The translations under genes and the position numbers were made by a program. From Escherichia coli (lineage in GTDB: Bacteria > Pseudomonadota > Gammaproteobacteria > Enterobacterales > Enterobacteriaceae): a stretch of 447 nucleotides of DNA. The notes beneath the pieces were generated by a model. That model saw nothing but the letters and a program-made list of their open reading frames with translations. It was not told the DNA's origin and ran no database searches. Shown here one piece after another: positions 1-447 of the stretch; within the stretch, counting starts at the first letter, position 1, and each line of letters opens with the position of its first letter. The DNA is taken from assembly GCF_003334335.1 (NCBI RefSeq), contig NZ_QOWQ01000189.1. One strand, given 5' to 3'.

Positions 1-152
1 ACCCACTGTGGAATGAGGCCAAAGTGCTGCGGCCAGAAGCTGATGCGCTGTTCATCAGGGACTATGGTGGCAACCAGCTGAGGCTGGTCATTCCCTGATG
101 CAGCGGTTACGGAAACAGAAGGAGTGGTGGAATTATGCAAGACGGTTGTCAT
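1..152 (-). CDS. Antirestriction protein, ArdB/KlcA/YfjX family; N-terminal 50 codons, 5'-partial in window (continues past position 1)
   Basis: ATG is the complement of 150-152, with an in-frame stop upstream (complement of 216-218) and no alternative ATG/GTG/TTG between them. An AAGGA Shine-Dalgarno (complement of 161-165) sits 8 nt upstream. The frame is open to the window edge. Translation: MTTVLHNSTTPSVSVTAASGNDQPQLVATIVPDEQRISFWPQHFGLIPQW. The VPDEQ-I-FWPQHFG-IPQW block matches my recollection of E. coli YfjX and the corresponding region of plasmid KlcA; this is recalled similarity, not a search result. Confidence 0.75.
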   Translation of the reverse strand, partial: MTTVLHNSTTPSVSVTAASGNDQPQLVATIVPDEQRISFWPQHFGLIPQW

Positions 153-160
153 GAGATTAT

Positions 161-165
161 TCCTT
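161..165 (-). promoter_or_regulatory. Shine-Dalgarno sequence (AAGGA) for the antirestriction CDS
   Basis: Minus-strand AAGGA followed by an 8-nt spacer (AUAAUCUC) and then the ATG at 152-150. Confidence 0.6.
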
Positions 166-243
166 ATAAAAAGTAAATGAATGGAAGAAATCCCGGGGGA
201 AGGGACAGACGTGAGTCAGAACTGCGCTTTCAGGGAAACGGCA

Positions 244-447
244 TCAGCGCATACTCTCCAGCAGCGTTTCAGCCATCACCCACAATGCGCGGTTGAGCTT
301 AATGTCGGTGTCGATGCTGTGAATGGCACGGGTATGGATACGTTTTCCTCTGGCACTGCGACCGGAAATCCCGCCTTTCAGCATATTCTCCTGAATGGTC
401 TGATAAGCACTCCACAGGTCCTTACCGTAATCCTCCCGGCGTCGTGG
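244..447 (-). CDS. Hypothetical protein, C-terminal 67 codons plus stop; 3'-partial in window (N-terminus lies beyond position 447); family not recognised
   Basis: Minus-strand frame is open from the window edge to TGA (complement of 244-246). Translation: PRRREDYGKDLWSAYQTIQENMLKGGISGRSARGKRIHTRAIHSIDTDIKLNRALWVMAETLLESMR*. The sequence is protein-like with mixed composition and a basic tract (GRSARGKRIHTR). It is in the same orientation as the downstream antirestriction gene, 91 bp upstream of it. The other two minus frames are interrupted by stops. Confidence 0.65.
   Translation of the reverse strand, partial: PRRREDYGKDLWSAYQTIQENMLKGGISGRSARGKRIHTRAIHSIDTDIKLNRALWVMAETLLESMR

Follow-up and report, generated by a model that had tools for sequence, protein, structure and literature searches.

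The 91-bp spacer between a DUF932-domain gene and an antirestriction gene (ard) of Escherichia coli is, on balance, probably an unexceptional intergenic segment of a polycistronic operon in a genomic island, in which the stump of a decayed small gene adjoins the native leader of ard. So read, it is not a new regulatory element and exemplifies features of known kinds, namely, a gene remnant and a translation initiation leader. The DNA analyzed here (the window) is 447 nucleotides long and consists of the 3' end of the DUF932-domain gene, the spacer and the 5' end of the antirestriction gene, with both genes on the minus strand. A sequence-only reading had placed the spacer at 153-243, and the stop and start codons of the flanking genes bear this out:

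244-447, minus strand: 3' end of the DUF932-domain gene, an open reading frame with a 100% match to WP_001234732.1 in E. coli 503025; stop codon TGA at 246-244.
190-244, minus strand: relic of a small Cys-rich gene (codons 1-19, frameshifted; nhmmer, 11.4 bits), containing the distal half of the CU-rich tract.
230-244, minus strand: mini-ORF ATG CCG TTT CCC TGA (MPFP*), the truncated start of the lost small gene; its A is shared with the DUF932 stop in TGATG.
153-189, minus strand: conserved leader of ard, in which a U-rich tract (one G in 28 nt) precedes the Shine-Dalgarno (SD) sequence.
160-165, minus strand: SD sequence AAGGAA (-13..-8 from the ATG); TAAGGA is invariant in our alignment of spacer paralogues (A2).
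1-152, minus strand: 5' end of the antirestriction gene (PF03230, ArdB/KlcA-type; WP_000214307.1); ATG at 152-150.

The window is 100% identical to the corresponding DNA of E. coli strain 503025, where the island adjoins a tRNA-Ser gene and encodes, entirely on one strand, Ag43, a hypothetical protein, IrmA, DUF905, DUF932, the antirestriction protein, YeeS (RadC/JAB), YeeT, another hypothetical protein, CbeA, CbtA, DUF5983, DUF957 and DUF4942. Of 5426 complete E. coli genomes, 4464 contain the DUF932-ard junction (median, three copies each), and 2746 contain the 91-nt spacer type, of which there are roughly 3800 copies. The literature searches on lfgA/lfgB, on the combination of DUF932, antirestriction and CbtA, and on yeeS/yeeT transcription start sites returned nothing on the window spacer or on the small gene described below.

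The origin of the spacer emerges from a comparison with 21 loci of other Enterobacterales that were fetched by homology to the antirestriction protein, along with further E. coli copies. The antirestriction genes at the homologous loci carry PF03230, and the gap between DUF932 and ard across the fetched loci ranges from 30 to 367 nt. The long gaps, among them those of Leclercia, Yokenella, Pseudocitrobacter and one of two copies in Enterobacter wuhouensis, are filled by an ORF of 81-86 codons, and the Edwardsiella and Rahnella copies contain the same small-gene sequence with frame disruptions. The gene order DUF932, small ORF, antirestriction gene, RadC is shared by Yokenella, Leclercia, Edwardsiella, Enterobacter, Pseudocitrobacter and Rahnella, and is also found in three E. 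coli loci (L037, L038 and L039). The ATG of the intact small gene overlaps the DUF932 stop codon as TGATG (L007, L010, L018, L022, L037 and L039). The following intact copies were delineated:

L039, 645-890: intact small gene of E. coli MEI005 (WP_001164966.1).
L037, 1501-1755: intact small gene.
L038, 1501-1728: intact small gene.
L018, 2179-2433: intact small gene.
L010, 2094-2354: intact small gene.

The encoded protein is Cys-rich, with the invariant core RSxSDDDLCAWC..YRPGE.SLC...WP...DGY..C and seventeen invariant columns; a shorter invariant pattern of the family can be written as SDD.LC..C..L.Y.PG....C. At 90% identity, searches retrieved at least 200 clusters (E < 1e-24), all annotated as 'hypothetical protein' or with the name of a neighbor, and 323 representatives at 50% identity (E <= 0.001), in some of which the sequence is a domain of a 160-290 aa protein. 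The clusters, the representatives and the invariant columns together establish that the small ORF is a genuine gene family, and its Cys-rich products probably bind metal. The small protein has no match in Pfam, NCBIfam or PHROG and no sequence relative in the PDB, its AlphaFold2 model has a pLDDT of 42, and the longer proteins that include the domain gave only single DUF6876 and DUF3846 matches. The position of the family is always between DUF932 and the antirestriction gene. This widespread, unnamed small Cys-rich gene upstream of antirestriction genes is the only item of wider interest here, and the family, which accompanies antirestriction genes on mobile elements, may deserve a study of its own.

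The small gene exists in E. coli in three states, intact (L037, L038 and L039), frameshifted (L025) and internally deleted (L002 and L026), and its internal part is detectable in 2614 of the 5426 complete genomes, with roughly 4300 small-gene copies in all. The DUF932-ard gap measures 54 nt in L003 and L005, 76 nt in L004, 81 nt in L033 and L034, 259-263 nt in L002 and L026, and 341 nt in L025. The islands of E. coli and E. albertii together display at least six gap-length variants, from the intact gene through frameshifted and deleted copies to short spacers, and this range suggests repeated decay of the small gene across these islands. The DUF932-ard module of CP4/Ag43-type islands, which most E. 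coli possess, would thus originally have carried a third gene, coupled to DUF932 and belonging to a broad Cys-rich family that no database names, with intact, frameshifted and deleted forms of it carried by E. coli.

The homology of the distal part of the spacer to this gene was assessed with an nhmmer DNA profile built from eleven small-gene regions, with 3000 dinucleotide shuffles and the reversed sequence as controls. Profile positions 3-57 are colinear with spacer nucleotides 3-55 at 11.4 bits, the best shuffle reached 1.6 bits, and the reversed spacer sequence did not match the profile. In local alignment, spacer nucleotides 1-54 correspond to codons 1-19 of the intact E. coli MEI005 gene. 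The profile and the local pairwise alignments replaced a MAFFT multiple alignment of short and long spacers, in which the leader was misplaced, and cheap-gap global alignments, which were over-fitted.

The reading frame of the relic is destroyed: a stop codon occurs at codon 5, and the SDDDLCAWC..YRPGE core is missing from all three frames. After a 2-nt gap, the +1 frame reads FPESAVLTHVCPFPRD, where the family has ..P......YPFPL., and it preserves the N-terminal spacing of the family along with its P-x9-(Y/C)-P-F-P pattern, as in P0093 (MQRIPDGLLQVSLYPFPLS). Read against the family, the C/U run GUCUGUCCCUUCCCCCGGGA is the former coding sequence for Val-Cys-Pro-Phe-Pro-Arg-Asp, and the CU-richness of the distal spacer is inherited from Pro and Phe codons (V-C-P-F-P). 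Relative to MEI005, approximately 247 nt are missing from the window spacer, and the deleted segment is flanked in intact copies by the C-rich words CCCGAC and CCCCGG. The junction is at or beside CCCGGG, and the similarity of these words suggests a deletion between short repeats; with about 30% divergence from the closest intact copies across this stretch, the exact breakpoint cannot be assigned. The TGATG overlap, colinear homology, destroyed frame and relaxed constraint (see below) are all found in the distal spacer, and they show that 244-190 is a frameshifted stump of roughly the first 19 codons of the small gene. The nhmmer profile did not match the 76-, 54- and 81-nt E. coli spacers or the short spacers of other genera, and relic status is therefore claimed for the 91-nt type only; the 76-nt spacer derives from the 91-nt type by a further net loss of 15 nt (14 gap columns in A2).

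The relic resembles the remnants in E. coli CP4-type islands (ypjI, ykfK, ykfL and yfjV; CP4-57 and CP4-6 of K-12), which belong to the same island family as the window: in both, a disrupted frame and an internal deletion leave an unannotated 'intergenic' stump. Unlike those remnants, the lost gene belongs to an unnamed family of 81-86 aa proteins for which there is no Pfam, NCBIfam or PHROG model, and the relic itself is only about 55 nt long and is not annotated in RefSeq. The mini-ORF at its start is kept as MPFP, MPFH, MLFP or MPFT in 10 of 10 aligned copies. These copies include a type with 83% identity in which the downstream spacer is otherwise different. As in UGAUG stop-start coupling, and as with the small gene in intact loci, one base belongs both to the DUF932 stop and to the ATG that follows; unlike in such coupling, the coupled ORF in the window has 4 codons and ends 76 nt before the ard ATG, and for this reason it cannot couple DUF932 to ard.

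We propose that the present arrangement arose as follows. An 81-86 aa Cys-rich gene (motif SxSDDDLCAWC..YRPGE.SLC) would ancestrally have been located between DUF932 and ard, translationally coupled to DUF932 through the overlapping stop and start codons in TGATG. The stop at codon 5 would have been created in this lineage by a 2-nt loss, and a deletion of about 247 nt, from approximately codon 20 to some 45 nt past the small-gene stop, would then have removed most of the gene. The remaining piece (244-190) would now drift neutrally, while the piece at 189-153 would be the native ard leader, held by purifying selection. This leader most likely works as a translation initiation region, an unstructured A/U-rich landing or enhancer tract beside a strong SD sequence. 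The antirestriction gene would be translated independently on mRNA read through from DUF932, in an operon that would run through DUF932, ard, yeeS and yeeT and then on to cbeA and cbtA.

The base composition that drew attention to the spacer is real. As the sequence-only reading had noted, the strand bias is strong, with 66% C+T in the mRNA sense (A17 C27 G14 T33), and the 43-nt segment that it had quoted, 208-166, is 79% C+T. Nowhere else in the 12.4-kb island L001 is a stretch of this length so pyrimidine-rich: only 0.03% of 43-nt segments, all in this cluster, reach the same level, and 0.37% of 91-nt segments match the entire spacer. The same reading had drawn attention to a CCCGGG palindrome, which is present but has no significance beyond chance:

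192-197, palindromic: CCCGGG, at or beside the deletion junction; a chance feature.

Where 1.06 palindromes of 6 bp are expected, the spacer has two, CCCGGG and TTATAA, a number reached or exceeded in 27% of dinucleotide shuffles. CCCGGG is retained in 4 of the 8 aligned copies of the 91-nt spacer type, having been lost in L035, L029, L031 and L004. Its position corresponds to GCC CCG GAG (A-P-E) in the intact small gene, and a similar word (CCCGAC/CCCCGG) also occurs in the leader downstream of that gene. A CsrA-type site with two GGA motifs was considered and rejected, as the upstream GGA (within CCCGGGA) is not conserved among the paralogues. For annotation, the spacer is a caution: a striking 'intergenic' strand bias can have a mundane origin, here the Pro/Phe codons of a dead gene together with a U-rich ribosome-binding leader.

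The proximal part of the spacer has a different history. Spacer nucleotides 55-86 align with the leader that follows the intact E. coli small gene (TTACTCCCTCTCATTTATTCACATTACAAGGA), the leader at 153-189 is homologous to the one behind the small gene in L039, L025 and L002, and the CATTYATTTRYT...TAAGGA core recurs in the spacers of 54, 76 and 81 nt as well as downstream of the intact small gene. All 25 of the 25 loci examined have (A/G)AGGA or GGAG at an equal distance from the start codon. The tract at -40..-13 (G1 A6 C5 T16) is unpaired in both the MFE and the centroid structures. Its pyrimidine-richness is not universal: the fraction is 0.54-0.75 in the E. coli types but 0.39-0.50 at loci where ard directly follows an intact small gene. 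The suggestion that a CU-rich leader acts as a translation enhancer or a binding site therefore has to be divided. The tract is not one element, given that its distal part (208-190, with CCCGGG) is the fastest-evolving portion, a coding relic; conservation is confined to the proximal part (189-166; 11% of columns variable), which may serve as a standby tract or A/U-rich enhancer.

A/U-rich enhancers in E. coli act cooperatively with SD sequences (PMC2176067), and unstructured upstream tracts are described as ribosome standby sites (PMC5934652). The window leader has what such a role calls for, an A/U-rich, G-poor stretch without predicted structure immediately 5' of the SD sequence. Like A/U-rich (S1-dependent) enhancers and standby tracts, it is a segment of about 25 nt, nearly G-free, U-rich and predicted to be unstructured, located 5' of the SD; unlike the classic A/U enhancers, it has more C and would be internal to a polycistronic mRNA rather than part of a 5' tail. 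We infer that the U-rich tract has an enhancer or standby role. The SD itself is mostly paired in the predicted ensemble (unpaired probability approximately 0.3), which would fit a simple 'open' initiation region poorly.

The two halves of the spacer differ sharply in conservation. Variable columns were counted in alignment A2, which contains seven 91-nt-type paralogues that are not independent of one another, and compared by Fisher tests:

190-226, minus strand: hypervariable middle of the relic, including CCCGGG; 18 of 37 columns variable (49%) among the seven paralogues, mean pairwise identity 0.767.
153-189, minus strand: ard leader; 4 of 37 columns variable (11%), mean pairwise identity 0.964.
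Third codon positions of both flanking genes: 33 of 117 columns variable (28%), mean pairwise identity approximately 0.89.
First and second codon positions: 22 of 236 columns variable (9%).

The relic middle is more variable than the leader (p = 0.0007) and than third codon positions (p = 0.03). The difference between the leader and third positions is marginal (p = 0.045, with 7 non-independent paralogues), and gene conversion between island copies could have inflated the identity of the leader. In its share of variable columns, the leader resembles first and second codon positions (11% and 9%). From this contrast in variable columns, the relic drifts at or above the neutral rate, and the leader appears to be constrained.

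A competing explanation is that everything in the spacer except the SD sequence is functionless filler, with the conservation of 166-189 resulting from hitch-hiking or gene conversion with the start of ard. The small, non-independent sample, the marginal contrast with third positions and the fact that the pyrimidine bias of the tract is not common to distant homologues are all compatible with such an explanation. We nevertheless consider it unlikely, given that the leader is far more conserved than the adjoining relic and that the core ending in TAAGGA was kept across spacers of three other lengths and behind the intact small gene.

A second alternative is a regulatory RNA switch, formed by the leader and the start of ard, in which the SD is sequestered alternately by the UUCC at -34..-31 or by the one at +20..+23, and an sRNA, a protein or a ribosome passing upstream shifts the balance, thereby controlling antirestriction expression. 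The sequence-only reading had proposed a weak pairing of an upstream UUCC with the SD, which folding did not support: this pairing has p of about 0.02 in the predicted ensemble, and the favored partner of the SD (GGAAU, -11..-7) is the UUCC at +20..+23 within ard, part of the following site:

129-133, minus strand: AUUCC (+19..+23 of ard), predicted partner of the SD; pair probability approximately 0.96.

The predicted hairpin has a local energy of -7.3 kcal/mol, and the SD is predicted to be unpaired with a probability of only about 0.24-0.31. Among close paralogues, the predicted partner alternates between the upstream and the downstream UUCC. These predictions, and the conservation of the leader, are what a switch would lead one to expect, but the spacer RNA folds no better than shuffled sequences (z = +0.32; 123 of 200 shuffles are equally or more stable), and in a G-poor, pyrimidine-rich sequence any GGA finds a UCC partner, so that such pairing is expected from composition. 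Furthermore, the bases of the candidate SD pairs do not vary, which leaves zero covariation to count in favor of a structured cis-regulatory leader, and L032 breaks the downstream partner (AGCUCC) without a compensating change. An Rfam search (E-value mode) yielded only two snoRNA models, at 15 bits against gathering thresholds of 90 and 36 (E = 0.36 and 3.6), with no match that would speak for a switch. Altogether, we regard an RNA switch as rather improbable. More doubtful still is the specific model in which the competing UUCCs of the leader (153-189) would keep ard silent on read-through mRNA until a trigger arrives, candidates for which would be transfer of the island, an sRNA, or ribosomes that terminate translation at the MPFP mini-ORF.

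The signals for transcription are consistent with the proposed relic-plus-leader spacer inside an operon. The absence of a terminator, noted from the letters alone, was confirmed, with zero terminator-like sites on both window strands and an MFE fold that consists only of 5-6-bp stems without a U tail. A convincing sigma70 promoter is likewise missing: the standard scan is empty on both strands, and the best sense-strand PWM candidate scores 5.2 bits, with a -10 element that ends 2 nt before the ard ATG and would yield a transcript lacking the SD. In L001, strong terminator-like hairpins are located just before DUF932 (5308-5337) and after DUF957 (9841-9867); between them are three weak sense-strand candidates with 5-9-bp stems (5388-5403, 8901-8921 and 9156-9173), none of which is between DUF932 and ard. 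The plus strand of L001 has terminator-like hairpins at 4999-5027 (after IrmA), 5308-5337 (after DUF905) and 9841-9867 (after DUF957), all three with stems of 10-13 bp and T runs, and the one at 5308-5337 is 49 nt upstream of the DUF932 start.

The bracketing by strong hairpins suggests that the genes from DUF932 to DUF957 form one transcription unit, the promoter of which must then be within or overlap the 49-nt gap. Given that there is neither a terminator nor a promoter in the spacer and no hairpin candidate between DUF932 and ard, read-through from DUF932, as the earlier reading had suggested, is the simplest interpretation, and we infer that the two genes are co-transcribed.

An internal promoter inside the conserved 37 nt, from which ard and the downstream genes would be transcribed independently of DUF932, appears very improbable. 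The 37-nt tract is A/T-rich as well as conserved, and the weak candidate TTCATT-16-TAATCT ranks at the 99.4th percentile of island positions. This is the 5.2-bit candidate considered above, invisible to the standard scan and placed such that its transcript would miss the conserved SD; moreover, about 80 positions of the 12.4-kb island score equally well, and there is no better -35/-10 pair upstream. The plus strand contains one further promoter-like site:

146-151 (TTGTCA) and 169-174 (AAAAGT), 17 nt apart, plus strand: antisense promoter-like site; PWM score 8.06 bits.

That this site drives a purine-rich antisense RNA through the spacer into the DUF932 3' end, with the strand bias reflecting such an RNA, is scarcely credible: the score is at the 99.95th percentile of that island strand and both hexamers are conserved in the 91-nt type, but the -10 lacks its first T, the -35 is the complement of ATG-ACA-A at the ard start and is hence conserved for coding reasons, the standard scan does not flag the site, no terminator follows it on that strand, the RNA would cover the least conserved region, and frameshifts disrupt the 39-aa antisense ORF in L030 and L035. 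This ORF (177-296, plus strand) was also rejected as a candidate in its own right, being absent in L033 and L034 in addition to these frameshifts.

Frpo-type single-strand promoters are found upstream of anti-restriction genes in plasmid leading regions and require a long, stable ssDNA hairpin. The window spacer likewise precedes an antirestriction gene, within a module of a mobile element. Unlike Frpo, however, the spacer is only 91 nt long, and the single strands of 120-280 fold no better than shuffles (z = +0.56 for the plus strand and -0.64 for the minus strand), with no excess stability.

The ard-type copies of E. coli K-12 are in other surroundings, yafX following ykfF, and lfgA/yfjX following the ypjI pseudogene, and their spacers are unrelated to the 91-nt type. 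K-12 was considered as a proxy through which published transcription start site data could be used, and was rejected because yafX and lfgA/yfjX differ in upstream context. In the gap between ypjI and lfgA of the K-12 element CP4-57 (L027, 5817-5919), a terminator-like hairpin, GCCAGCcatcgccGCTGGC, is followed by TTTTTT about 20 nt before the SD. With an unrelated upstream spacer that includes this hairpin, the yfjX/lfgA copy of K-12 may be regulated differently from the window type.
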